From the sequence record PZ496580.1: a stretch of 64,000 nucleotides of DNA; one strand, written 5' to 3'. The stretch is from a phage. The stretch's first letter is position 1; each line of letters opens with the position of its first letter. Shown here one piece after another: positions 5,136-40,204 of the stretch. The translations under genes were made by a program, and so were the position numbers. The notes under the pieces are model-generated. The model was not told the DNA's origin. It saw only the letters and a program-made list of their open reading frames with translations, and searched no databases.

Positions 5136-6605
5136 CTATTCCCCATTACCATTATACTTTCTTTGCTTAGTTATCCACACTCTAACCATCTCTACAGATT
5201 CGCCGTCAGACGGATCAAGAGTTTTTCCTTTTTTCTTCATGCGGTACTTAAATCCGTTAAATCTTGCATTCTCTTGCTCGTTAAAGTCGAACATCTTTTT
5301 AAATGATTTTCGCCCTTTACGCTCACCGCATTCTAGAGGAATCATTCGGTCTGTTATTACATTGGCATTAGGTAGAAACGTTTTTAGATAATCTACCAAC
5401 GCCCAATCAGGAACATATAGATTAACATTCTCCTTGCTCTCGTTGTCTCTCAGGTTACAACGCAAACATAATTGAAATGCTGGTTCCAGATAATCAGACA
5501 CATGACGCGCTTTCAAAAACTCGTTTGTTGGGAGATCGCAACTATTAGCAAGACCTTTTAAAATATCAATCTCCCATCGTTGAGGGTTAAAGCTGAACAT
5601 CACAGCAACATTTTTATGATGAATGTAAGAGTTAAGACCATAAGATCCGTAAGGTATCCGCTCACCAATACCATTTGTGCACGCTTCTCGGTCCCGATTC
5701 ACGGTATAAATGAAGTCATCACCACATTCATTTTTAACCATATCAACAAGACGTTCAAAGGTATTGTTTGTTTCTGACTGGTGACGCGACCATCGTTCAG
5801 AGTCCGTCATAAGGATGATATTAACTCTATCTGTATTTTTATACTCTTTGAAATATAGTCTGGATTCTAGCGCACTCGGAACAAAATCACAATTTGCATA
5901 GTATCGTAGATACTTCCCACTATATGTATCAAAGAGATTTGCACATGCTATCGTAACCTTTTTAAAGTCTCCCCACGTACCGTGTTTGTTATCGTTCAAG
6001 AAAACAATTTTCGACCCATTCTTCCGGTGGCCTTCGTTATGTTTTACCATAACGTTGATTTTCTTCTCTAATAACGCCTCATAAAGCCCTCTAAGAGAAG
6101 AATCGATCATATCAGTACCATCCTTTGCACTTTCTATCTTTTCTTTGATAGCGGCCTTCTCAGAGTCTTTTAGAACTAAGTTCTGTAGGCATTCCGATTC
6201 GTCGGCGATTGGTTCGCAATGCTTCGTGATAAGTTCAAGATTAGACTTAAACGGATACTCATTAAATTCAACCAGTTGAGGAACTTCATCAATGTAAAGA
6301 GCATAATCACCAAACATTTTTGAACGTTCCATATTAGATAACGCTGTATGTGTAATGAATATCACATCAGCACCATCTTTAACTGATTGCATTATCGACG
6401 CTTGCACTGTCTTAAGGCTTCTTAGTCTTGTGCTATCAATCAAGACAGCACGACCGCCCATTCTTTTAAACTTATTGTAAGATTGTTCACTTAAAACACG
6501 AGATGGCGAAGCAATAACCGCTTTTTCTTTTGTCTCTAGGACGTGGGAAAGTATAGCATCAGTTTTCCCCGCCGCTGGCAATGCGATTAATGTTTCAATC
6601 TTCAT
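5136..6605 (-). CDS. P-loop NTPase, helicase-like N-terminal domain (489 aa), function unknown
   Basis: Walker A LPAAGKT, helicase motif Ia-like SPSRVLSEQ, Walker B LYIDEV; C-terminal Cys cluster CLRCN; ATG at 6605 overlaps stop of upstream ORF (TAATG). Confidence 0.6.
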   Translation of the reverse strand: MKIETLIALPAAGKTDAILSHVLETKEKAVIASPSRVLSEQSYNKFKRMGGRAVLIDSTRLRSLKTVQASIMQSVKDGADVIFITHTALSNMERSKMFGDYALYIDEVPQLVEFNEYPFKSNLELITKHCEPIADESECLQNLVLKDSEKAAIKEKIESAKDGTDMIDSSLRGLYEALLEKKINVMVKHNEGHRKNGSKIVFLNDNKHGTWGDFKKVTIACANLFDTYSGKYLRYYANCDFVPSALESRLYFKEYKNTDRVNIILMTDSERWSRHQSETNNTFERLVDMVKNECGDDFIYTVNRDREACTNGIGERIPYGSYGLNSYIHHKNVAVMFSFNPQRWEIDILKGLANSCDLPTNEFLKARHVSDYLEPAFQLCLRCNLRDNESKENVNLYVPDWALVDYLKTFLPNANVITDRMIPLECGERKGRKSFKKMFDFNEQENARFNGFKYRMKKKGKTLDPSDGESVEMVRVWITKQRKYNGNGE

Positions 6606-7072: not shown

Positions 7073-7331
7073 AAATCGCCCTCAGTTCTTTATAGCCTCC
7101 AATGTGCTCGTTGTCAATGAATATCTGGGGGTATACAAATCGGAGGCTCTTTGAGTTCAGCCTCCCCGCCAGTTCTTCAATCATATCACGGTCGGGAATA
7201 ATGTCAACCCCAACCTGCTTGAATACTGGTTTAAGTGTATACGGAATACCCAGATCATCCAGTAGCTTCATTGCACTAATACAACCATAACAATGATAAG
7301 CCTCTTTCGGTATACCGTATATCTCGATCAT
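7062..7331 (-). CDS. nrdH: glutaredoxin-like redoxin (NrdH/Grx family)
   Basis: CYGC active-site motif near N-terminus, about 89 aa, next to anaerobic RNR genes; ATG at 7331. Confidence 0.65.
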   Translation of the reverse strand: MIEIYGIPKEAYHCYGCISAMKLLDDLGIPYTLKPVFKQVGVDIIPDRDMIEELAGRLNSKSLRFVYPQIFIDNEHIGGYKELRAIYDY

Positions 7332-7834
7332 TTCTCAGCCTTTAATCTTTCTAGTTCTTCTTCCAGTTCCTTAATGCGCTTCTCGCGTTCAATATCACGT
7401 TGGATCTTAGTGGCGAATACTCGTTTAAACTGACTATAGTCATCAATTTTAAATACTTCCTCTTCACCATATCGACGTACAGAAACTTCGTAGTTGTTGA
7501 AAAATTGTTCCAACATTGCATCAGTGGTCAGTTCTGCCGATACCACTTTAAAATGACGTTCTTCTGATTGCAAAAACCAGTTGTGCGCGTATTCCCGTAC
7601 ATCATCAACATTGCGGCAGGTGTATACCGTGCCATCAATTTCAATCGCAGAAACATAATCATCATCCGATGCATGGTGATCAAATGCAATAACTTTAAAT
7701 GGACGGTCGCCGATAAACTCTGCTATTGCATCATTTGCAACGCTAAAGTTTGCAAAATCTTTTCTCGTTTTCTTATCTTTCCACTGATAGGTCACGCCAG
7801 CAACAAACATATTACCATCCTCGCTCTTTACCAA
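7328..7834 (-). CDS. paralog-family protein (family A; beta-rich domain plus C-terminal coiled coil)
   Basis: Shares GxTYxWKD...GxRPFKV...IEIDG...WF...F unit with ORFs at 7812, 8649, 9118, 14038; charged coiled-coil tail. Confidence 0.55.
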   Translation of the reverse strand: MVKSEDGNMFVAGVTYQWKDKKTRKDFANFSVANDAIAEFIGDRPFKVIAFDHHASDDDYVSAIEIDGTVYTCRNVDDVREYAHNWFLQSEERHFKVVSAELTTDAMLEQFFNNYEVSVRRYGEEEVFKIDDYSQFKRVFATKIQRDIEREKRIKELEEELERLKAEK

Positions 7835-8636
7835 TCAAAAATTCAACTTCACGACGTTTAATGTCTTCTTGAAGGTCTTTAATCTTCTGTCGATCTTGCA
7901 TGATTTCGTCCATCTTGTCAAGTGCTGCAATGAAATCATCGAAACGTTCAAAGGTTTTACCTTCATTTGCTTCGCTAAATTTAACCATAGTCAGACCGTA
8001 ACGACTACTAAACAGACGTTTCAACTGTCCAACGATCTTAGAATCAGTGGTTATAACTTCCAATTCTTCTACTTCTTGAAAGAATTTTCTATCAGAATCA
8101 ATAAACCAGCTAGTTCCTTTATGGTCTCTATCTCCGGTTGCGCTCATTAGAGTATGGTCTTTACCATCAATTTCAATTACATCAATTTGCCCACATGGAC
8201 TAACATTTTTAACAGTAAAAGGTCTATAATTTATTGCTCGTGCAATAACATAATTAAGGTTAGATACGTTTTCAGCATAATGGCAGAAGTCGGTCATAGC
8301 CTTCGCATCTTTCCAAGTATAAGTTTTACCAACTTCCCATTTCTGGGGAACTTCTTCAACTTCACGAAAGAATTTTCTATCGAATGGACTAAAGAAATAT
8401 GTTGCAGTCCAAATGTCTTTTCCTGTAGCAGTTTTCGCCGTATGATAAACACCGTCTAGCTCTATTGCATTAATCCAACCGTTACCCTCGATCTCGATGA
8501 TGGTAAATGGCTTGTCACCAATAGCTGCACTAATATCGCTGTTAAGTGGAGAAAGAACACCTTCTCCGTTAGTAATAAACTCAGTTTTAGCGTTTTCATC
8601 TTTCCAAGTGTAAGTTTTACCAATTTCCCATTTCAT
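7812..8636 (-). CDS. paralog-family protein, two tandem family-A domains plus coiled-coil tail
   Basis: Internal duplication KWEIGKTYTWKDENAKTEF... and KWEVGKTYTWKDAKAMTDF..., each ending FDRKFF.EVEE. Confidence 0.6.
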   Translation of the reverse strand: MKWEIGKTYTWKDENAKTEFITNGEGVLSPLNSDISAAIGDKPFTIIEIEGNGWINAIELDGVYHTAKTATGKDIWTATYFFSPFDRKFFREVEEVPQKWEVGKTYTWKDAKAMTDFCHYAENVSNLNYVIARAINYRPFTVKNVSPCGQIDVIEIDGKDHTLMSATGDRDHKGTSWFIDSDRKFFQEVEELEVITTDSKIVGQLKRLFSSRYGLTMVKFSEANEGKTFERFDDFIAALDKMDEIMQDRQKIKDLQEDIKRREVEFLIGKERGW

Positions 8637-8648
8637 AATATATTCCCC

Positions 8649-9128
8649 TTAACCGATTTTATCAAGTTCGTTTAATGCTTTCTCTGCTTCCTGTATAGCT
8701 TGCACCCTTTCCGGCATTTTGTCAAGAAAATCTTTCAACTCTTCAAAACTGGAGATATGACGCAAGGCATTAGCACCGATAGCCGCATGTGATTTGCATT
8801 CAAAGCGAATTTTATAATTATCCATCGCCAACTTGAGAAGATCAATTAGTTTAGATTCTTCTGGAATAATAATTTCTTCAAATCTGCTACGGTCGTGATC
8901 CAGAAACCAACAAGATAGACCTACATCGGTTGAACTCATATAAGTTCCATCATGAAGATATACAGATCGCACGTATCCTTTTTTCGCATCAACCGACGCA
9001 ACTTTAAACGGTAATCTCAGATATTTCAAATAATCAACATCATACCATTTAAAAAATTGGTTTGCATCTTTTACATCTTTCCACGCATAGGTCTTACCAG
9101 CTTCCCATTTCATAATATCATCTCTCAT
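8649..9128 (-). CDS. paralog-family protein (family A)
   Basis: N-terminus MKWEAGKTYAWKDVKD...; WFLDHDRSRFEE; C-terminal helical tail. Confidence 0.55.
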   Translation of the reverse strand: MRDDIMKWEAGKTYAWKDVKDANQFFKWYDVDYLKYLRLPFKVASVDAKKGYVRSVYLHDGTYMSSTDVGLSCWFLDHDRSRFEEIIIPEESKLIDLLKLAMDNYKIRFECKSHAAIGANALRHISSFEELKDFLDKMPERVQAIQEAEKALNELDKIG

Positions 9129-9666
9129 TTTTGATACGTGATTCTAATTGGATCATACGGTCGCGCGTTTGCTTGTATTCGCGGATAGCACCGATACGGC
9201 TAGGCATACCATTTAGAACGCTCTTAATACCTTCTAGGGTAGTAATTTTAGCAATGCTATTATGTAACCCCATCTTATCGATTAACTGAATATCGTAGGC
9301 TTCCATAAGCAGACCCAGACGTTCTAAGGTTAAATCTTGTTCTTTATCTTCTTCCTTTTCTTCCGGTTCTGGGATTTCTTTGTTAATAGTAGCTTCGGTA
9401 AAGAAACGACGCTCACCTGCCCAAAACCACACACCGGAAAAGCCAATAGGGGATTCTTTTAACGTCATAGAGTCGTAACCACTGCCGATAATAGTAATTT
9501 CTCTAACATCACCATCATCGTCAATGTCTTCTACCCTAAACGGGCGACCAGCCAACAAGTCCACAATACATCTGTTAATAGACGACGAAAATTTAGTCAG
9601 TTCGGCTTTCGACGCTTCGCATTCAATCTTGTAAGTTTTACCAACTTCCCATTCCATAATAATCAC
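9118..9666 (-). CDS. paralog-family protein (family A)
   Basis: MEWEVGKTYK...GRPFRVEDI...WFWAGERRFFTE; acidic linker and coiled-coil tail. Confidence 0.55.
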   Translation of the reverse strand: MIIMEWEVGKTYKIECEASKAELTKFSSSINRCIVDLLAGRPFRVEDIDDDGDVREITIIGSGYDSMTLKESPIGFSGVWFWAGERRFFTEATINKEIPEPEEKEEDKEQDLTLERLGLLMEAYDIQLIDKMGLHNSIAKITTLEGIKSVLNGMPSRIGAIREYKQTRDRMIQLESRIKNER

Positions 9667-9667
9667 C

Positions 9668-10171
9668 TCAAATAATTTTCACTGGAATACTATTAACAAT
9701 CTTGTATTGTACTTGATTGTCGGACCCCCGCCACGGCTTCTTCGTTGGCATATCTTTAATATAACGCCCATCGATGAACATGTCAACCGATTCTACAATT
9801 TTTCTTTGCTCATCATTCAATTGGTCAAGGGTATAACCAGACCATAGCCAAATATCTTTATTTGGCATCCATGATTTTACTTCATCGATGATCCGCTGTA
9901 CACCCTTTAAATTGCGTTTATACAGTGGATCGCCACCTAAGAATGTTAGCCCCTGAATAAAATCAGGTCTAAGCAGATCCAGAATCAATCCCATTGTATC
10001 ATCAGTGAATGGTTCCCCGTTCTTAGGATTGAGTAGGCTAGCATTAAAGCAACCATCACATGCGTGTGAACATCCGGTAACGTAAAGGGAGACTCTCACT
10101 CCCTCACCGTTAACCATATCACAATCTTTAATATCGGCATAGCGTAGTTTGCCGTATGTATCAGAACTCAT
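9668..10171 (-). CDS. nrdG: anaerobic ribonucleotide reductase activating protein NrdG (radical SAM)
   Basis: Cys cluster GCSHACDGC (CxxxCxxC) near N-terminus; size about 167 aa; adjacent to nrdD; track start 10177 is TTG, first ATG at 10171. Confidence 0.85.
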   Translation of the reverse strand: MSSDTYGKLRYADIKDCDMVNGEGVRVSLYVTGCSHACDGCFNASLLNPKNGEPFTDDTMGLILDLLRPDFIQGLTFLGGDPLYKRNLKGVQRIIDEVKSWMPNKDIWLWSGYTLDQLNDEQRKIVESVDMFIDGRYIKDMPTKKPWRGSDNQVQYKIVNSIPVKII

Positions 10172-10313
10172 ATTCAATTACCCCAAACTCGTTTACAATC
10201 TGCGCTTTATAGTATCCACCGCGAGATGCTAATAGATAAGCCGGGCTTAGGTATTCGTATTCACGGATTTCTACTTGTGCGTTTTCAGTTTCCCAAATCA
10301 GTAAAGTCCACAT
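10161..10313 (-). CDS. small hypothetical protein (about 50 aa)
   Basis: ATG at 10313 preceded by AGGAGA and promoter 10356-10384; track ORF 10161-10388 extends upstream through the promoter. Confidence 0.3.
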   Translation of the reverse strand: MWTLLIWETENAQVEIREYEYLSPAYLLASRGGYYKAQIVNEFGVIEYEF

Positions 10314-10355
10314 ATTTGATTCTCCTGTAAAGTTGTATCTCGTCTTGATGAATAT

Positions 10356-10384
10356 AGTATAGGGGATCTCTCGATCCCCGTCAA
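10356..10384 (-). promoter_or_regulatory. sigma70-type early promoter with spacer hairpin (PeSL-like)
   Basis: Minus strand TTGACG(10379-10384)-17-TATACT(10356-10361); 7-bp inverted repeat ggggatc/gatcccc fills the spacer. Confidence 0.6.
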
Positions 10385-10388
10385 GCAT

Positions 10389-10718
10389 TTATTTTAAATT
10401 TTTTCGAATGTATTCAGACCATTCCTTCCCTGTCAGTTCGGTCCCATTCTGGAAACTGAAATATTCATACGGCATAGAGTCAAGATAAAACAGGATCATA
10501 CATCGCGCCATATAATACCAATCACGATTAAAGTAAACTACGTTATCACCAGTACCATCAGCACCTTTATCATAACCATCGCGGGTACGGGCGACCCATT
10601 GAATAGTATCATTTTTCTCACGGATAGTAACAGGTTCCCAATATCCAGCACCATCCAGCATGACCACACGAACAAGTAAGGAAATATTGGCCTTTTGATT
10701 TGTTGTCATCCCATTCAC
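10389..10718 (-). CDS. hypothetical protein (109 aa); start uncertain, possibly fused with upstream ORF
   Basis: Track start 10718 is GTG with no Shine-Dalgarno; overlaps ORF 10618-10938 by 100 nt. Confidence 0.4.
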   Translation of the reverse strand: MNGMTTNQKANISLLVRVVMLDGAGYWEPVTIREKNDTIQWVARTRDGYDKGADGTGDNVVYFNRDWYYMARCMILFYLDSMPYEYFSFQNGTELTGKEWSEYIRKNLK

Positions 10719-10938
10719 GATGGATTGGTTCGATCTCGTGAAACAGTGCTAAACAATCATGATTATGCAACACTGGCTTACCATCAATCAATGCATGGAA
10801 TGTATACAAACGACCAGTAGACAAATAGCTGTCCTCACGCTCAACCAGTTCAATAGCAATCTTTTTAGCTCGTTCCTTGTGTCGTTGTGCTTTACGCTTA
10901 CGGTTTAATGATTTCATATTCACCTCACACATTATCAA
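10618..10938 (-). CDS. hypothetical protein (106 aa), basic N-terminus
   Basis: ORF overlapping next ORF; see frameshift finding. Confidence 0.4.
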   Translation of the reverse strand: MIMCEVNMKSLNRKRKAQRHKERAKKIAIELVEREDSYLSTGRLYTFHALIDGKPVLHNHDCLALFHEIEPIHREWDDNKSKGQYFLTCSCGHAGWCWILGTCYYP

Positions 10939-11480
10939 AGGTCGCGATATAGTACATTATGAAAATGAGAACTTGCATTACCAATATTGTAGATAATAAA
11001 TTCTTCATCCGGCGCTTGCGCTACAAATTGAGTATGAGCAACCGCTACAACCTTAAAAATACGATCCGTGATCTTGTGTTTAATTTCTGTTCCTACTTCC
11101 ATAGGAACATATTCATGTGTTTCTGTTTCAGTCGCAAAACAGCCATCTTCTTCATAAGCACGAACAAATCGATCGCAATCAGTACGCTTAACAAATTCAA
11201 GAGTATATAATTCTCGTGAATTGTCGGTATAAACCAACACAGAATTATTCTGATAGCGAATCACATACAGGTTATTATCATCGTCAATTACGCAAAAGCT
11301 ACGGATTTGTGTTCCTTCGCCTTTACTCCAGCAGATATTAACCACCGTTCCTCTAATAAAAAAACTTTCCTTTAAATTAAAACTAGCCAATGTGCTAGCG
11401 TGCATTTTAACAACAACACCATCGCCAATTTCCAGTTTACGAAGTTTAACTTCTTTGCTCAGCACACAAAACATCATCAT
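10935..11480 (-). CDS. hypothetical protein (181 aa)
   Basis: ATG at 11480 downstream of promoter 11510-11537; start is MMMFCV. Confidence 0.5.
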   Translation of the reverse strand: MMMFCVLSKEVKLRKLEIGDGVVVKMHASTLASFNLKESFFIRGTVVNICWSKGEGTQIRSFCVIDDDNNLYVIRYQNNSVLVYTDNSRELYTLEFVKRTDCDRFVRAYEEDGCFATETETHEYVPMEVGTEIKHKITDRIFKVVAVAHTQFVAQAPDEEFIIYNIGNASSHFHNVLYRDL

Positions 11481-11509
11481 GTTGTCCTCTCGTTGTTTTC
11501 GATGTGAGC

Positions 11510-11537
11510 ATTATACATTAGCTAATCAGGTTGTCAA
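11510..11537 (-). promoter_or_regulatory. sigma70-type early promoter
   Basis: TTGACA(11532-11537)-16-TATAAT(11510-11515), just downstream of nrdD terminator. Confidence 0.6.
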
Positions 11538-11542
11538 CACCT

Positions 11543-11576
11543 AAAAACGAAAAAGCCGACCCTTTCGGATCGGCTG
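11543..11576 (-). terminator. rho-independent terminator after nrdD
   Basis: 8-bp stem with one G.U (11554-11561/11568-11575), then U-run on minus strand. Confidence 0.6.
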
Positions 11577-11580
11577 AAAA

Positions 11581-13443
11581 TTACATGTGCTTAACGCGGT
11601 TTACCATCTCGGAATGTTTCCCGTGGTTAAATGGACGCAGATCAACAGATCCAAGATATCCACTAACGCGACGGATAACATTCATTTTTTCCAGATTATC
11701 ATTTCCGCAATCAGGGCAAACAAAACCAGACTCGGTCGCTCTCATTTCCTTAGTAGATCCGCATACATGACACACATCAGAAGGGGTATTAACACCGAAG
11801 TAGTGCAATTTATCCATTGCATAGTCTACTACAGTTTCAAGCCCTTTAATGTTGTTTTTCATGTCTGGAAACTCAACATAAGAGATCATGCCACCGGACG
11901 CCAGCCAGTGATAGTCTTTCTCAAAGTCGATTTTCTCAAACGGTGTGACTTTCCGGTCTACGTCAAGGTGGAATGAGTTGGTGTACCAGTCTTTATCGGT
12001 AGCACCCTTAACAATACCAAATTGCTCTCGGTCCAGTCGATTAAATCGATAGCAAAGGCTTTCGGCTGGCGTACCGTAAAGACTAAACCCAAGTCCGGTT
12101 TCGTCCTTCCATTTTTCAGTATAATGACGCAAGATCTTAAGAATATGTTTACCGTATCGCTGCGCATCTTCCGAATCAAACGGATGAACACCAAACAGGA
12201 CGCTCAATACCTCATGTAAACCAATATACCCAAGAGAGATACTAGCGCGACCATCTTTCAACACTTCCAAAATTTCATCGTTTTGATGAATACGGAAAAA
12301 TGCACCTTCGGTATACAGTACAGGAGCAACATTGGCTTTAGCGCCTTTTAAAGCGTCTACGCGACTCATGAGCGCATCAAAACAAATAGGCATACGATTA
12401 GCTAGCTCTTGTTCGAATAGCTCAATTCTGCGCATTACAGACGCTTTACCAGCACGACGCGCGGCAATAAGGGCAATACGCGGAAGATTCAGAGTAACAA
12501 CACCTAAGTTATTACGTCCGTCTAATACTTCTTCGCCTTTCTCATTATGCCACACACCCAGGAAGCTACGACAACCCATCGGGCTAACCGGAACACTAGA
12601 TCCAGTGATACTACGGTTATTCTTCGCAGAGATATAATCAGGGTAAAGACGCTTACTAGAACATTCCAATGCAAGTTGTTTAATGTCGTAGTTCGGATCT
12701 TCCGGTTTAAGGTTTAATCCTTCTTCTAAGAACATCACCAGCTTAGGAAACACCGGAGTTATACCATCTTTACCTAAACCTTTAGTTCGAACTTTCAGGA
12801 TCGCTTTCTGAATCAGTTTTTCTTCCCAGCTAGTACCCATACCAAATGTTAAAGTCACAAAAGGTGTTTGACCGTTGGTGGAGAACAAAGTGTTGATTTC
12901 ATATTCCAACGCCTGATACCCGTCTAGCGTTTCTTTTTCTGTCTTCTCTTGTGCATAGAGAGTATCAGCTTTGATTCCGTAGGTTTCGGCATCAGCAAGG
13001 TGTTTATGATATGTTTTCTCAACATACGGTGCTAACACCTGATCGATGTTTGCAATTGTGGTCCCGCCATATTGATGACTTGCCACCTGTGCGATAATTT
13101 GAGCGGTTACAGCACAAGCAACGCCGATTGATTTCGGACTTTCGATTTGTGCGCTACCCAATTTAAAACCATTCTCTAGCATGTCTTTTAGATTAACAAG
13201 ACAGCAGTTAGTAAACGGCATAGCGGGTGCATAATCCATATCATGATAATGAATATCACCGTCTACATGCGCTTTATAGATGTGCTCAGGTAACACGGTT
13301 TTAGCAATCTGTTTAGACACAGCGCCAGCAATCAGATCTCGACGTGTCGGGAATGTTCGCGCGTCTTTGTTCGCGTTCTCTTTGCTTACTTCGTTTTCTT
13401 TACCCGTTGCGATCTCTGTAATGTCTTTGATTAGTTTTTCCAT
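11581..13443 (-). CDS. nrdD: anaerobic ribonucleoside-triphosphate reductase NrdD (glycyl radical enzyme), uninterrupted
   Basis: 620 aa; C-terminal glycyl radical motif RRVSGYLGS followed by CxxC...CPDCG zinc ribbon; ATG at 13443; terminator hairpin 11543-11576 after stop. Confidence 0.92.
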   Translation of the reverse strand: MEKLIKDITEIATGKENEVSKENANKDARTFPTRRDLIAGAVSKQIAKTVLPEHIYKAHVDGDIHYHDMDYAPAMPFTNCCLVNLKDMLENGFKLGSAQIESPKSIGVACAVTAQIIAQVASHQYGGTTIANIDQVLAPYVEKTYHKHLADAETYGIKADTLYAQEKTEKETLDGYQALEYEINTLFSTNGQTPFVTLTFGMGTSWEEKLIQKAILKVRTKGLGKDGITPVFPKLVMFLEEGLNLKPEDPNYDIKQLALECSSKRLYPDYISAKNNRSITGSSVPVSPMGCRSFLGVWHNEKGEEVLDGRNNLGVVTLNLPRIALIAARRAGKASVMRRIELFEQELANRMPICFDALMSRVDALKGAKANVAPVLYTEGAFFRIHQNDEILEVLKDGRASISLGYIGLHEVLSVLFGVHPFDSEDAQRYGKHILKILRHYTEKWKDETGLGFSLYGTPAESLCYRFNRLDREQFGIVKGATDKDWYTNSFHLDVDRKVTPFEKIDFEKDYHWLASGGMISYVEFPDMKNNIKGLETVVDYAMDKLHYFGVNTPSDVCHVCGSTKEMRATESGFVCPDCGNDNLEKMNVIRRVSGYLGSVDLRPFNHGKHSEMVNRVKHM

Positions 13444-13455
13444 TGTATCACCTAT

Positions 13456-13479
13456 GAAAAAGCGGGATTTTCTCCCGCT
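13456..13479 (-). terminator. terminator-like hairpin immediately upstream of nrdD start
   Basis: Stem agcggga/tcccgct (13461-13467/13473-13479) followed by U4-5 that abuts the nrdD Shine-Dalgarno. Confidence 0.5.
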
Positions 13480-13488
13480 CGTTGATAG

Positions 13489-13983
13489 TTATTTTACCAG
13501 TTCTGCTAATTCTTTTTCTTTAGCTTCTAGTTCAGCTTTAAGCTGTTTAATCTCTTGTCGCTTCTTATTAGCGGCTTCTTGCTTACTATTTCGGATAACC
13601 TGATCTAGATACAACTCCCAATCCTGAATATTTTTGATAATGTAACCGTCAACATTAATTGGTCGGAGATTCAGTACAGCTTCCAGTTTAGTTGCAAAAA
13701 CTTTAATTGCTGGGGTGAAGTATTCATATTCGTTATCTTCAAACCAATAACCTAGACTTGCATTATCAATACGAAGACGAAGTTCAAGATCAAGGTCTTT
13801 ATCTTCGGTGTATAGGTCTTTTACACCCCCCATCGAACCAACAACAACTTTAAAACGAATTTTATCAACACCACCAAACACATCAGTAAGGATACCAGCA
13901 ATTGAGCTATTAGCGCAAGATTGGTCGCTGAATGCGTCAAGGTTTTCTTTAGTTACAGTATACCAAACATCTTGTTTCCACAT
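13489..13983 (-). CDS. hypothetical protein with C-terminal coiled coil (164 aa)
   Basis: ATG at 13983 downstream of promoter 14008-14041; C-terminus KQLKAELEAKEKELAELVK. Confidence 0.5.
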   Translation of the reverse strand: MWKQDVWYTVTKENLDAFSDQSCANSSIAGILTDVFGGVDKIRFKVVVGSMGGVKDLYTEDKDLDLELRLRIDNASLGYWFEDNEYEYFTPAIKVFATKLEAVLNLRPINVDGYIIKNIQDWELYLDQVIRNSKQEAANKKRQEIKQLKAELEAKEKELAELVK

Positions 13984-14007
13984 AATATAATCCTCTCGTT
14001 GTTAAGT

Positions 14008-14041
14008 GGGAGTATTATAGCATACTCCCTTTGCATGTCAA
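14008..14041 (-). promoter_or_regulatory. sigma70-type early promoter with hairpin across -10 (PeSL-like)
   Basis: TTGACA(14036-14041)-16-TATAAT(14014-14019); 8-bp inverted repeat gggagtat/atactccc (14008-14015/14022-14029). Confidence 0.6.
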
Positions 14042-15216
14042 GCACGAACTTTTTTCTTTACTGCTTTCACCTTCTGGCGAATTGCTCGAATCTCTTCGAT
14101 CTCTTTTTCAGTCTCTTTAACAATTTCTTTGCGATTCTGAATATCTGTATCGAGATTATCATCAAGTTTAGGCAGCATGTCAATCAAGAACTTTTTAAAG
14201 TCTTTCAGGTTTCGGATAACAGCACCTTCACCCATTACCGCCACCCCTACACCATCCGGTAGATCACCAAACAGTTTAACCAGTTCAGACAGATGATCAT
14301 GATCTTCTAGTGCTTCTTCCGGTTCAGATGGTAGTTCAACAAAGTAATAGCGTTCATCATTGCTGATCAGGTGATACCAGCAAAGCCCAAAAGATTTAGG
14401 AGTATATTCTACACCATCAACTTCAACCGCGTCAACACTTCCGAAAGAATCTACTTTAGTTACCTTAAATCCGTGTTCCAGCTTTTGAACAATTTCAATA
14501 ACATGACTGGATACGGTTTCAGTGTTAAACCAATGAGGCAAATTATGTGGATTTGGTTTGTAGCGTTCGCCCACTTTAAATCTCTGACCACGCTCTTGCA
14601 TACGGACATATTCAACTCGCGTTATTTCCGCGAAGTATTCAAATTCGCTACCGTCAAACACACAAGCCCATTGATCACAAAAACGATCCGCCTTAACAGT
14701 TTCACCTTTCGCGGTGATCATGGTAGCCGATCCGTGAAATTCTTCTTCAACTAAAAAGCCATATTCGACAAAATCAACAAGTTTCATGGCTTCTTTGTGC
14801 TCTGGATCATGCTCTCCCCAGAATCGCTTAAATTCTTGCAAACCTTCCGGGGTAAACGAATAACATTTACCTTTTTCAAAGTAAGTCGGCATTGCATCCT
14901 CTTTCTTGTTCATCGCTTCGTATGTCTCTTTTGAGATACGTTTAAAGTATTTGCGCTCATTGTGCATAATCATAGTAGCCCAATAATCCACAATATCATT
15001 AGCGGAATAAACTACATCTCCAGCTTCAATAGTAATAACATGACCGTGGTCATCTTTTTCTAATACTTTAAAGCCCTTTTCTACGATTTCAGCAACCCGA
15101 ATATGACCACGGCGCGAAGCATCAGTCAGAATAATTGAATAGCGAGAAAAGTCTAGAAACTCATCTTTACCGCCTTCACGGAATGCATAGTAATGCCCTT
15201 CAAAGAATTTAGCCAT
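14038..15216 (-). CDS. paralog-family protein, multi-domain (392 aa) with coiled-coil tail
   Basis: Several repeated about 90-aa units (e.g. HGFKVTKVDSFGSVDAVEVDGVEYT... WYHLISNDERYYFVEL) related to family A; ATG at 15216. Confidence 0.55.
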   Translation of the reverse strand: MAKFFEGHYYAFREGGKDEFLDFSRYSIILTDASRRGHIRVAEIVEKGFKVLEKDDHGHVITIEAGDVVYSANDIVDYWATMIMHNERKYFKRISKETYEAMNKKEDAMPTYFEKGKCYSFTPEGLQEFKRFWGEHDPEHKEAMKLVDFVEYGFLVEEEFHGSATMITAKGETVKADRFCDQWACVFDGSEFEYFAEITRVEYVRMQERGQRFKVGERYKPNPHNLPHWFNTETVSSHVIEIVQKLEHGFKVTKVDSFGSVDAVEVDGVEYTPKSFGLCWYHLISNDERYYFVELPSEPEEALEDHDHLSELVKLFGDLPDGVGVAVMGEGAVIRNLKDFKKFLIDMLPKLDDNLDTDIQNRKEIVKETEKEIEEIRAIRQKVKAVKKKVRA

Positions 15217-15241
15217 AATATAATCCTCTCGTTGTTTAGAT

Positions 15242-15276
15242 GGGAGTATCTTACTACTCCCGTTTCATCATGTCAA
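15242..15276 (-). promoter_or_regulatory. sigma70-type early promoter with hairpin across -10 (PeSL-like)
   Basis: TTGACA(15271-15276)-17-TAAGAT(15248-15253); inverted repeat gggagta/tactccc. Confidence 0.6.
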
Positions 15277-15857
15277 GCGTTAAATGACTTTTGGATCTCT
15301 TTCAGTTCAGCTACTTTATCGGCGCTATACTTTGCTTGATGTTCCATGCGCTTAAGCTCACCTTTGATATAGGTTTCTAGCTTAGGTTTATTCTCAATCA
15401 GAAAATCTTTCAAGTCATCGGCATTTTTAAAGTATAGCTGATTATCAAAGCTAAAATCTTCCAGCGTCAATGATACCAAAGAAGACTTCGCAAACAAGTT
15501 AATCAGATCTTCCAGAGATTCTTCTTTCTTAACTGGTTTCATTTCTTCAAACTGCTTTTTAGTGATGCGTTTAAAGTATTTGCGCTCGCTTGCATCAATC
15601 AGAATCGATGCACCCTCATAATCATGAGTTTCTACCAAATACACATTACCCATAACATTAACGGTCAGAACTTTAAAGCCATTGCGAAGCACATCATGCA
15701 GGAATTTGTTATGTTGCGGGTATAGTTTAACAAATTCAACAGCAGCATTAGCACTACGGAAAGTGTAGTAACGGCCTCTTTCAAAAACAGCATCATTGGA
15801 AGATTTAGCCGGATATACTTTGTATGTTTTCTGCACCATAATATAATCCTCTATCAT
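15273..15857 (-). CDS. paralog-family protein (194 aa)
   Basis: NGFKVLTVNVMGNVYLVE...SERKYFKRI unit similar to 14038-15216; coiled-coil C-terminus. Confidence 0.5.
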   Translation of the reverse strand: MIEDYIMVQKTYKVYPAKSSNDAVFERGRYYTFRSANAAVEFVKLYPQHNKFLHDVLRNGFKVLTVNVMGNVYLVETHDYEGASILIDASERKYFKRITKKQFEEMKPVKKEESLEDLINLFAKSSLVSLTLEDFSFDNQLYFKNADDLKDFLIENKPKLETYIKGELKRMEHQAKYSADKVAELKEIQKSFNA

Positions 15858-16126
15858 TTCACTAATTGAACAGCACGGAACAGAATGCGATCACATGGAA
15901 GTAGCATAAAGTTCCAGCTCGGATCAAAGTCTTTAGCGGTGTAGGGTTTCCCATCAACAGAGATTTCACTTACATAACCAATGGGCGACACTTTAAGAAC
16001 AGTAAATCCATTCTTGATGACTTCGTAGGTATCTTTCAGACCTTCGTAGTCGTCCTCTAAGAAGTCTTTACGTGCTTGCTCAGATTTAAAAACATAGGCC
16101 ACACCAGCTTTAAACATCTTACGCAT
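15854..16126 (-). CDS. paralog-family protein, single domain (90 aa)
   Basis: ATG at 16126 downstream of promoter 16152-16186; NGFTVLKVSPIGYVSEISVDGKPYT motif. Confidence 0.5.
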   Translation of the reverse strand: MRKMFKAGVAYVFKSEQARKDFLEDDYEGLKDTYEVIKNGFTVLKVSPIGYVSEISVDGKPYTAKDFDPSWNFMLLPCDRILFRAVQLVK

Positions 16127-16151
16127 TGTTGATTCTCCTTCTTGATTAGAT

Positions 16152-16186
16152 GGGAGTATTTTACTACTCCCATTTCATGTTGTCAA
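16152..16186 (-). promoter_or_regulatory. sigma70-type early promoter with hairpin across -10 (PeSL-like)
   Basis: TTGACA(16181-16186)-17-TAAAAT(16158-16163); inverted repeat gggagta/tactccc. Confidence 0.6.
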
Positions 16187-39251: not shown

Positions 39252-39629
39252 TTAAGAATATTTTACTTCGTCTACAATGTCTTTCATGACATTGATTTCC
39301 ATTCCGGTCAGAACACGTTGGAACATGTGCTGAACATACGCTTTCAGGTATTCATTTGACGGCTTGCTATCAAAAGTCTTTTTAGTGTAGTAGTCATCAC
39401 CGAACGCTACTGTAATTACATTTTCGTCGTCATTCCAAGCGATATAAGCAAATTTGCCGTTATCCCAGAAGCGAGCACTAATTGCTACTTTTGTTGAATC
39501 GAATCCTACTTCGCTGTGAGATTCAAGAACTACTTGCGTGCCAGTTTCTTTATGAATGTAGTAGCGGGATACTAAGTCAAAGTTACGGGTGTAGTGACAT
39601 TCGAATTTATCTTTAAACATCATCATCAT
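39252..39629 (-). CDS. hypothetical protein (125 aa)
   Basis: ATG (first of four consecutive Met codons) at 39629 with AGGAGA, downstream of promoter 39667-39695. Confidence 0.5.
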   Translation of the reverse strand: MMMMFKDKFECHYTRNFDLVSRYYIHKETGTQVVLESHSEVGFDSTKVAISARFWDNGKFAYIAWNDDENVITVAFGDDYYTKKTFDSKPSNEYLKAYVQHMFQRVLTGMEINVMKDIVDEVKYS

Positions 39630-39666
39630 TTTGATTCTCCTAAGTGTGTTTCGTTTCGATGTGTGC

Positions 39667-39695
39667 ATTATGCTATAGTCGTTTATGGTTGTCAA
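39667..39695 (-). promoter_or_regulatory. sigma70-type early promoter
   Basis: TTGACA(39690-39695)-17-CATAAT(39667-39672). Confidence 0.6.
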
Positions 39696-39699
39696 CACA

Positions 39700-39732
39700 T
39701 AAAAACAAAAAAACCCCGAAAAATTTTCGGGG
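39700..39732 (-). terminator. rho-independent terminator after gene 57B
   Basis: Stem ccccgaaaa/ttttcgggg followed by long U-run on minus strand. Confidence 0.6.
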
Positions 39733-39739
39733 TATAGAA

Positions 39740-40204
39740 TTACAGTTTGGTCGTCCACTCCAGATCTAGATCTTCGACATACTCATGAGATCGGACAATC
39801 TCTAAATCGAACTCTAGGTCAGTGCCAAATTTACGCGCACCAACATCATAAGAAAGCGTGATATGCGGTACATATTCAGGATAATCCCACGTCGCACCTA
39901 AAGCAGTTCCGATATCGTGTCTGAATTGCATGTAGTCGCTTTCAAATGCCAGCACCAGTGCATTAGTACCGGATTGAGTTTCAAACACTTTCAGGTGGCA
40001 TAGAGAGCCTAAAAACTTTTCACCCTCTTCTGGGATAAACGGAACATAGACACGAGAATATAAGATAGTGCTATGCAGTTTATCACGAGGAACGGCATTA
40101 GGCAGATCGTAGAACTCCTGCAATTTTTCAATGCGGTCTAGTGTATCCTCAGTGAATTTAACCGCCGCATATGTACCTTTAACGGATTCTCGAAACGGGG
40201 TCAT
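39740..40204 (-). CDS. 57B: gp57B-like 2H phosphoesterase (Acb1-type anti-CBASS candidate)
   Basis: Two HxT motifs (KLHSTILYS and VPHITLSYD) at spacing typical of 2H/LigT-fold phosphoesterases; synteny 57B-57A-1 as in T4; ATG at 40204 with GGAGG (track start 40210 is TTG). Confidence 0.7.
   Translation of the reverse strand: MTPFRESVKGTYAAVKFTEDTLDRIEKLQEFYDLPNAVPRDKLHSTILYSRVYVPFIPEEGEKFLGSLCHLKVFETQSGTNALVLAFESDYMQFRHDIGTALGATWDYPEYVPHITLSYDVGARKFGTDLEFDLEIVRSHEYVEDLDLEWTTKL

Follow-up and report, generated by a model that had tools for sequence, protein, structure and literature searches.

The closest described relatives of the genes analyzed here are gof as well as frd.2 and motB.1 of coliphage T4, whose products Kim et al. 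(2025, Comput Struct Biotechnol J, PMC12152347) united, on the basis of their N-terminal domains (GoF residues 1-91, Frd.2 1-88 and MotB.1 1-82), into the GoF/Frd.2/MotB.1 'LSm-like' family. T4 GoF (ComCα) is a dispensable early protein made in large amounts (about 20,000 copies per cell); like MotB.1, it runs as monomer and dimer. With the mutant GoF(D25Y), a gene 41 5'UR reporter RNA has a longer half-life, an effect independent of Hfq; neither wild-type GoF nor MotB.1 stabilises this RNA (PMC12152347). In a CRISPRi-ART screen frd.2 was the single T4 fitness gene of unknown function (PMC11879866), while frd.2 amber mutants plate normally according to Kim et al. (PMC12152347). In T4, goF has been unexplained since the rho/nusD suppressor work; it took until 2025 for its family to be recognised, on the basis of three T4 genes, each present in single copy. 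We compare with these proteins a cluster of eight paralogous genes, A to H, located around nrdD and nrdG in a phage DNA stretch of 64,000 nucleotides (record PZ496580.1; the whole stretch is hereafter called the window). With 95-97% nucleotide identity to FL15, Phi1 and RB49, the window was identified as part of an RB49-like Krischvirus (Straboviridae), a T4-type coliphage. We read the cluster as a lineage-specific Krischvirus expansion of the GoF/Frd.2/MotB.1 family, with early modulation of mRNA metabolism as the best guess for its role, and give this reading a probability of roughly 0.5. The expansion is genuine, yet it concerns a family already known and reveals no new kind of system. Its genes are the following:

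7328-7834, minus strand: gene A; listed open reading frame (ORF) of 168 amino acids from a TTG, likely start at ATG 7810 giving 160 amino acids; one N-terminal barrel unit, then a C-terminal α/β element and a charged helix; PHROG 5347 (1.6e-54).
7812-8636, minus strand: gene B, 274 amino acids; tandem barrel units at residues 3-95 and 100-191, 48% identical to each other; C-terminal domain predicted to end with a 40-residue helix.
8649-9128, minus strand: gene C; likely start at ATG 9113 giving 154 amino acids; one barrel unit and a C-terminal domain.
9118-9666, minus strand: gene D; likely start at ATG 9657 giving 179 amino acids, 10 nucleotides (nt) past the nrdG stop; one barrel unit, acidic linker and C-terminal domain.
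13489-13983, minus strand: gene E, 164 amino acids; probable divergent member; one unit, then C-terminal domain and charged helix.
14038-15216, minus strand: gene F, 392 amino acids; RB49 ortholog named 'frd.2'; three tandem barrels (residues 4-95, 113-199 and 213-295), the third being the best BLAST match of T4 Frd.2, and a C-terminal domain.
15273-15857, minus strand: gene G; likely start at ATG 15839 giving 188 amino acids; one barrel unit and a C-terminal domain.
15854-16126, minus strand: gene H, 90 amino acids; barrel unit alone, without C-terminal domain; PHROG 16115.

The eight ORFs were present at the positions given in the initial annotation, all on the minus strand, and its central claim, that they have in common a unit of about 90 amino acids, was borne out by all-vs-all BLASTP and by hidden Markov model (HMM) comparisons, weakly so for E. 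Matches among A, B (twice), C, D, F (three times), G and H had E values from 1e-12 to 1e-4, and none of six neighbouring non-family ORFs gave an all-vs-all BLASTP match better than about 0.1. Full-length alignment of the 11 units (one each in A, C, D, E, G and H, two in B and three in F) gave identities of 14-48%, with Y11, F45 and F91 invariant and G8, F22, V47 and G54 nearly so. When the family was split, an HMM of the A-D units scored F1, F3, G and H at 23 to 38 bits, and an HMM of the F-H units scored A, B1, B2 and C at 17 to 30 bits, against 11.3 bits for the best of 1000 shuffled units. Two units scored poorly in this test, D at 12.6 bits with the F-H model and F2 at 2.1 bits, that is undetected, with the A-D model; we kept both in the family because they are linked to it through nearer paralogs. 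A six-frame scan of the window with a 10-unit HMM matched these genes only. Two weak candidates from the HMM searches, at 35422-35748 and 39255-39782 (both minus strand), had E values of 0.04-0.1 with partial coverage and were rejected.

Some details of the initial annotation changed. The expansion and the two copies in B stood, but its count of about 12 domain copies fell to 11, and F, credited with three or more, has exactly three. Likewise, the charged coiled-coil tail described there corresponds to a long charged C-terminal helix in seven of the eight genes and is absent from H; this helix may form a coiled coil, a crude heptad score on the tails being no more than suggestive. Overall the earlier observation was partly confirmed: it is largely correct in describing a genuine expanded paralog family, with a repeated module of about 90 amino acids and a helical tail, unusually variable among close relatives, and its unit count, gene starts and promoters needed correction.

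Gene E required separate treatment. With either half-family HMM it scored 6 to 7 bits, which is within the range of the shuffled units, and with the 10-unit HMM its E value was 0.002. An hhalign comparison of E and its orthologs with the other ten units gave a probability of 81% and an E value of 1.2e-5 with the whole domain covered, and E has a cross-match to PHROG 3710 in common with A, B, D and F. An AlphaFold2 (AF2) model of E, made from an alignment of its orthologs only, had a mean predicted local distance difference test (pLDDT) score of 60, too low for a fold search; in this low-confidence model the order of secondary structures matches in both halves and there is a 45-residue helix. 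Moreover, E has the same promoter cassette as F and H. A score of 4e-12 obtained with an iterated HMM was discarded as circular, since E and its orthologs were in the training set. E is thus probably a divergent member of the family.

The initial annotation had recognised no named T4 family in the repeat. In fact, HMM searches, the RB49 annotation and PHROGs all identify it as GoF/Frd.2/MotB.1. An HMM built only from the window units matched T4 GoF with an E value of 3.9e-9 (residues 3-91), Frd.2 with 2.8e-5 (residues 2-90) and, weakly, MotB.1 with 0.095 (residues 8-86), ranges that coincide with the N-terminal domains delimited by Kim et al. BLASTP of T4 Frd.2 against F gave 6e-7. The RB49 ortholog of F is annotated as frd.2 or 'goF mRNA metabolism modulator'. 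The main PHROGs were phrog_5347 for A to D, 8944 ('goF mRNA metabolism modulator') for F and G, 16115 for H and 15067 for E, with many cross-matches, and PHROG goF families were matched by A, B, F, G and H. Pfam (E<=1) and NCBIfam scans yielded nothing for the eight proteins beyond sub-threshold coiled-coil noise, and a sequence search of the PDB with the family profile found no match. Pfam PF03197 (FRD2) covers residues 26-128 of T4 Frd.2 (E value 5e-39), and none of the eight window proteins matches it even at E<=1; as judged from these comparisons, the Pfam FRD2 model is too narrow for the family. Annotation resources therefore fragment this family, Pfam with a model that is too narrow and PHROGs by spreading the eight genes over four main groups.

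The architecture described for the T4 proteins, an N-terminal domain, a linker and a variable C-terminal domain, was also found here, with H reduced to the N-terminal domain and B and F carrying two and three of them. The unit has the order β1, two helices and β2 to β5 and ends with the motif [DE]-R-[KR]-[FY]-F-x-E-V. In most cases an acidic linker, a small α/β element and a long charged helix come after the barrel. Like their T4 counterparts, these are small, mostly acidic proteins of a T4-type phage, probably encoded in dispensable early regions, with a homologous N-terminal β-barrel of about 85-90 amino acids whose structural neighbours are FeoA and IdeR/SloR. On the other hand, eight clustered genes with 11 barrels replace the three dispersed single-barrel genes of T4, two- and three-barrel polypeptides exist, and the cluster surrounds nrdD/nrdG instead of lying near gene 39 or frd. 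A rough neighbour-joining tree, calculated without support values, grouped A-D with GoF and Dc2 (an RB49 protein) and F-H with Frd.2. In this grouping the cluster falls into two local blocks, a GoF-like one (A-D) downstream of nrdG and a Frd.2-like one (F-H) upstream of nrdD, with E as an outlier. RB49, Krischvirus, expansion by paralogs and proteins with several barrels are not mentioned by Kim et al. (PMC12152347), and in the literature searched we found no description of the Krischvirus expansion, of the multi-barrel proteins or of the recombination-driven turnover considered below.

For the fold of the unit we relied on an AF2 model of B residues 96-274, computed from a 23-row alignment of paralogs and orthologs (mean pLDDT 81; barrel blocks 78-93). 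The model shows β1, two α-helices, β2, β3, β4, short helices and β5, followed by a poorly ordered linker, an α-β-β element and the 40-residue helix. It has the N-terminal bent five-stranded antiparallel β-sheet of the family and, among its closest solved folds, FeoA, the C-terminal SH3-like domain of DtxR/IdeR, the MIB repeat and the Tudor domain of PcrA; the similarity is modest (Z <=5.5). Foldseek against the PDB gave no significant match, and the FeoA, MIB and SloR folds nonetheless ranked at the top. Kim et al. also reported the FeoA/DtxR-type group as the closest relatives (PMC12152347). In contrast to members of the FeoA and DtxR/IdeR/SloR SH3-like group (CATH 2.30.30.90), the eight proteins have no Pfam sequence match, FeoA included, and, unlike FeoA (PF04023), they show no link to metal transport genes, their neighbours being nrdD, nrdG, nrdH and ORFans. 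According to the model, therefore, the likeness to FeoA is a fold resemblance and not membership. A Foldseek search of BFVD gave 64 matches at E<=1e-3, and all 35 listed matches with a source name were phage proteins, nearly all from T4-type phages (exception, phAPEC8, K7QK92). They included GoF of VR7 and the RB49-type Dc2 of ECD7, and the phages were named after Proteus, Aeromonas, Edwardsiella, Serratia, Pectobacterium, Citrobacter, Klebsiella, Salmonella and Enterobacter hosts.

The model bears directly on whether these proteins could be true RNA chaperones of the Hfq/LSm type, which would bind U/A-rich RNA directly through rings of six or seven barrels or through pseudo-rings made of tandem barrels. 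Kim et al. call the N-terminal domain 'LSm-like' and list Hfq among its structural relatives (PMC12152347), GoF(D25Y) does raise an RNA half-life, and units G and H are basic. However, the Sm/LSm/Hfq fold, with its N-terminal α-helix, five bent β-strands and Sm1/Sm2 motifs, was not recovered: in the model the N-terminal helix is missing and two helices follow β1 as an insert, and Hfq or Sm chains appeared in neither fold-search list. Most units are acidic, the GoF(D25Y) effect is independent of Hfq, and AlphaFold3 gave no confident homo-oligomers for GoF or MotB.1 (PMC12152347). We consider such chaperones very unlikely and describe the unit, as modelled, as a FeoA/DtxR-type SH3-like barrel with a helical insert, for which 'LSm-like' is a loose label.

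In the reading that we prefer, an expanded set of early modulators of mRNA metabolism, the eight proteins would be early, sigma-70-transcribed and individually dispensable host-takeover proteins. The barrel would be a ligand-binding scaffold, because the conserved Y11, F45, F91, G8, F22, V47 and G54 look like hydrophobic core or turn positions; the other, presumably exposed, positions differ among copies. The C-terminal helix would dimerise the protein and tandem barrels would add valency. The shared activity would most likely be modulation of mRNA metabolism, either by RNA binding or by blocking host RNA-decay or Rho-linked machinery, an extrapolation from the post-transcriptional stabilisation of gene 41 mRNA by T4 GoF(D25Y). 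The position around nrdD/nrdG would reflect the plasticity of the region and not a role in ribonucleotide reduction.

Several observations speak against this reading. The wild-type members of the family are without any known function, and dimerisation through the C-terminal helix is inferred. Nine of the 11 barrel units are acidic (isoelectric point, pI, 4.4-6.2), unlike a general RNA-binding surface, G being the sole strongly basic barrel (pI 9.4). In contrast to the short C-terminal domain of T4 GoF and Frd.2, the one found here is an α/β element with a 40-residue charged helix. The statistics for the membership of E are weak and the GoF-like and Frd.2-like clades carry no support values. 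Furthermore, the closest solved folds (FeoA, DtxR/IdeR, MIB and PcrA Tudor) are SH3-like protein-interaction modules, which together with the acidity of most units favours a panel of protein-binding adaptors or inhibitors. Each barrel would then bind a different host protein, for example a component of defence, of the nucleoid, of RNA polymerase or of Rho, the C-terminal helix would dimerise or tether the protein, and any effects on RNA would be indirect. Also in favour of such adaptors, the strictly conserved residues are hydrophobic or glycine, apparently in core or turn positions, with the remaining positions varying among copies; goF came up as a suppressor of host rho alleles (PMC12152347), wild-type GoF does not stabilise RNA, and close relatives carry swapped alleles, which is the usual picture for genes of host interaction. 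Nevertheless, a pull-down with His-tagged GoF from uninfected E. coli brought down almost nothing but GoF itself, as monomer and dimer; no family member has a known partner, no gene has dN/dS (the ratio of nonsynonymous to synonymous divergence) above 1, and the fold similarity is, as noted, modest. In our judgement a panel of adaptors is less likely than the mRNA reading, but it is a serious rival to it. The initial annotation had itself proposed diversifying binding modules, possibly aimed at host proteins, an interpretation that as a whole is partly supported.

We looked at the positions of the two goF mutations in the window units. The second suppressor, G84R, lies in the family motif [DE]-R-[KR]-[FY]-F, which reads E-A-G-F-F in wild-type GoF; unlike the latter, most window units carry a basic R-[KR] pair, with K or R in the G84 column of six of the 11 units and R in the preceding column of eight. 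Unit G has Lys at the G84-equivalent column and Tyr at the D25-equivalent one, the latter in a loop where the alignment is uncertain. This leaves room for a more specific and, in our opinion, improbable proposal: barrels with different surfaces, in tandem or paired through their helices as homo- or heterodimers, would be multivalent binders of mRNA or of the host RNA-decay/Rho machinery, and an activity that T4 GoF acquires only through mutation would be present from the outset in some of the natural paralogs. The prime candidate would be unit G, with its basic barrel, Tyr at the D25 column and Lys at the G84 column. If this proposal were true, the cluster would give direct experimental access to the 50-year-old question of GoF. 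In any case it offers a natural series of variants for probing GoF function, several with the G84R-type basic residue and one with a basic barrel.

Concerning the evolution of the cluster, its region of 8.8 kb shows 94-97% nucleotide identity to RB49, Phi1, JSE, FL15 and about 60 other Krischvirus coliphages, and the layout of eight genes and 11 units is kept in RB49, JSE and UPWr_E1. The RB49 counterparts are RB49p048-051 and p057-060, which flank nrdG, three or four small ORFs and nrdD, the whole block lying between nrdH and gene 49. We calculated gene-wide dN/dS between the window and RB49, JSE, UPWr_E1 and one metagenomic relative. The flanking gp55, nrdH, nrdG, nrdD, gp49, nrdC and dam were 97-100% identical, with synonymous divergence (dS) of 0.02-0.19 and dN/dS of 0.00-0.13. 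By comparison, A had about 70% identity and dS of 0.8-0.9 to RB49 and JSE, G about 75% identity and dS of 0.6-0.7 to all four relatives, and B, C and D 69-76% identity and dS of 0.4-0.6 to UPWr_E1. Such a jump in dS points to the replacement of diverged alleles (mosaicism) and not to positive selection in place. Positive selection was rejected, as every gene-wide dN/dS was below 0.7; the values for the family genes were 0.02-0.66 and never exceeded 1. Of the claim that the copies are diversifying, mosaic allele replacement and copy-number change thus remain, and positive selection does not. Since the non-family ORFans orf109 and orf181 of the same region show the same dS behaviour, allele turnover is a property of this hyperplastic region.

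Two natural variants illustrate this turnover at the level of gene structure. In one relative (L011 10001-10537) B has a single barrel, with the junction within the conserved DRKFF motif, which is the signature of unequal crossover between B1 and B2. Another contig (L015 5941-6878) carries a D/B chimera, has lost C and has a frameshifted A, with nrdD and nrdG intact; it is a Logan assembly, so that an assembly error is possible. The occurrence of natural variants lacking C or one B barrel suggests that the genes are individually dispensable. The copy number of this family shifts by recombination within its own conserved motif.

We also re-examined the gene starts and the expression signals. 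ATG codons inside the listed ORFs, at 7810 for A, 9113 for C, 9657 for D and 15839 for G, have the same GAGG..TATATT-ATG context as the starts of B, E and F and agree with the RB49 annotation; they are the likely true starts, and with them the barrel begins at residue 2-5 in all proteins but G. The initiation region, GAGG[AT]T..TATATT-ATG, is near-identical in seven of the eight genes (A to G; window 7812-15839), and E and F are identical across the 23 nt preceding the ATG. This suggests that a 5' untranslated cassette may have been duplicated or exchanged together with the genes.

Contrary to the claim that most copies have their own hairpin promoter, only three of the eight (H, F and E) do. 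Their promoters belong to the promoter-early stem-loop (PeSL) cassettes described in RB49, phi1 and JSE (Arbiol et al. 2010, PMC2839356; Comeau et al. 2014, PMC4122927); experiments on those of RB49/phi1 demonstrated that they act as promoters and as terminators (PMC2839356). The elements identified in and around the cluster are:

16127-16186, minus strand: PeSL-type early promoter of H (and G), TTGACA-17-TAAAAT, 11/12 match to the sigma-70 consensus.
16152-16171, minus strand: hairpin of the H promoter, GGGAGTA..TACTCCC, overlapping the -10 box.
15217-15276, minus strand: PeSL-type early promoter of F, TTGACA-17-TAAGAT, 10/12 match; stem at 15242-15261.
13984-14041, minus strand: PeSL-type early promoter of E, perfect TTGACA-16-TATAAT, 12/12 match; stem at 14008-14029.
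13457-13479, minus strand: terminator-like hairpin separating the E stop from the nrdD start, AGCGGGA-GAAAA-TCCCGCT and then TTTT.
11510-11575, minus strand: terminator hairpin followed by a perfect sigma-70 promoter; putative operon start.

As in PeSLs, the elements of H, F and E are intergenic and combine sigma-70 -35 and -10 boxes with a G/C-rich stem-loop over the -10 box, with Shine-Dalgarno sequence and start codon coming next. No such element precedes A, B, C, D or G, where spacers are 1-14 nt long or a hairpin is lacking. The three elements differ from the described PeSLs in sharing one identical stem, GGGAGTA...TACTCCC, which occurs exactly three times in the window, at these genes, against 0 expected, a pattern compatible with duplication or exchange of a cassette. 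Part of the family therefore sits on PeSL cassettes, and the consensus sigma-70 promoters and PeSLs indicate that the family genes would be expressed early and transcribed with sigma-70. The hairpin at 13457-13479 was found by direct reading and had not been flagged by the automated terminator/promoter scan.

The five genes without a hairpin promoter sit close behind an upstream gene, A-D in the nrdG operon and G behind H. The spacers are 10 nt between nrdG and D, 4 nt between D and C, 12 nt between C and B, 1 nt between B and A and 14 nt between H and G, which leaves A, C, D and G without space for separate promoters; the sole candidate for B is a weak 10/12 promoter match within the end of C, without hairpin. 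Based on gene spacings of 1-14 nt, the element at 11510-11575 most likely starts an operon consisting of orf181, the frameshifted ortholog of RB49p054, a DUF7170 ORF, nrdG, D, C, B, A and nrdH.

This apparent cotranscription of A-D with nrdG and nrdH speaks for a role as accessory factors of the anaerobic ribonucleotide reductase, in which the co-location with nrdD/nrdG would mean shared function; unit A also has a weak PHROG cross-match to a 'radical SAM domain-containing protein' profile (E value 0.0017). Yet T4 has nrdD, nrdG and nrdH without a family member nearby, a further RB49 member, Dc2, adjoins gene 41, and relatives in which C is lost and D and B are fused keep nrdD and nrdG intact. 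In addition, nrdD has been named as a PeSL-associated plastic locus (PMC2839356). We regard a role in ribonucleotide reduction as extremely unlikely.

Whole-genome six-frame scans found nine genes with 12 units in RB49 and three genes with three units in T4. The family can thus reach nine genes and 12 barrels in one phage lineage and form two- and three-barrel proteins. The ninth RB49 member is Dc2 (211 amino acids; NC_005066 11993-12628; HMM E value 2e-8). The gene 41 that adjoins it is the gene whose mRNA is affected by T4 GoF(D25Y). RB49 has no family member at the site of T4 goF/motB.1 (39-dexA) or of frd.2 (frd-32), and T4 has none around nrdD/nrdG.

In a tblastn search with the family consensus 858 phage genomes were matched; among the listed records, seven places were matched in each of four Krischvirus genomes and one or two in the others. 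The search also matched myoviruses of 148-156 kb, namely phAPEC8, a Justusliebigvirus-labelled record, ESCO8, REC and PD114 (records H77, H78, H82 and H86), which we take to be outside Straboviridae. If they are, the family would not be exclusive to T4-like phages, contrary to the title of the 2025 paper. A profile search of 1.84 billion representative proteins gave 91 clusters at E<=1e-3, mostly of 75-280 amino acids with the unit at the N terminus and with varying C-terminal domains, several having two or three units. Five long repeat proteins (P0097, P0111, P0117, P0146 and P0147) had matches of 25-40 residues, several of them repeated, and were treated as unrelated repeats without inspection. 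A word-indexed homolog search with the unit alignment returned 14 close relatives only.

Finally, some features of the neighbouring genes deserve mention. All window genes from 4.5 to about 43 kb are on the minus strand. The ortholog of RB49p054 (175 amino acids) is broken into two overlapping ORFs, 10618-10938 and 10389-10718 (window 10389-10938, minus strand), by a 1-nt insertion, an extra G in GGATGGTGCTGG as compared with GGAT-GTGCTGG in RB49; this is either a frameshift creating a pseudogene or a sequencing error. In the window nrdD (11581-13443) is a single uninterrupted ORF of 620 amino acids, and in JSE (L014 7244-9866) it is divided into two coding sequences by a homing-endonuclease gene. 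A 489-amino-acid ORF at 5136-6605 (minus strand), hypothetical in RB49 (p044), has a DEAD/DEAH-box helicase Pfam match over residues 11-130 that is barely over the curated cutoff (E value 3.4e-6; 27.3 bits vs a cutoff of 26). At window positions 10165-10221, where the DUF7170 ORF ends and nrdG begins, 48-57 nt are 90-94% identical to unrelated phages of about 49 kb, Escherichia phage IsaakIselin and Klebsiella phage Samwise, and may represent a short shared mobile or regulatory segment.

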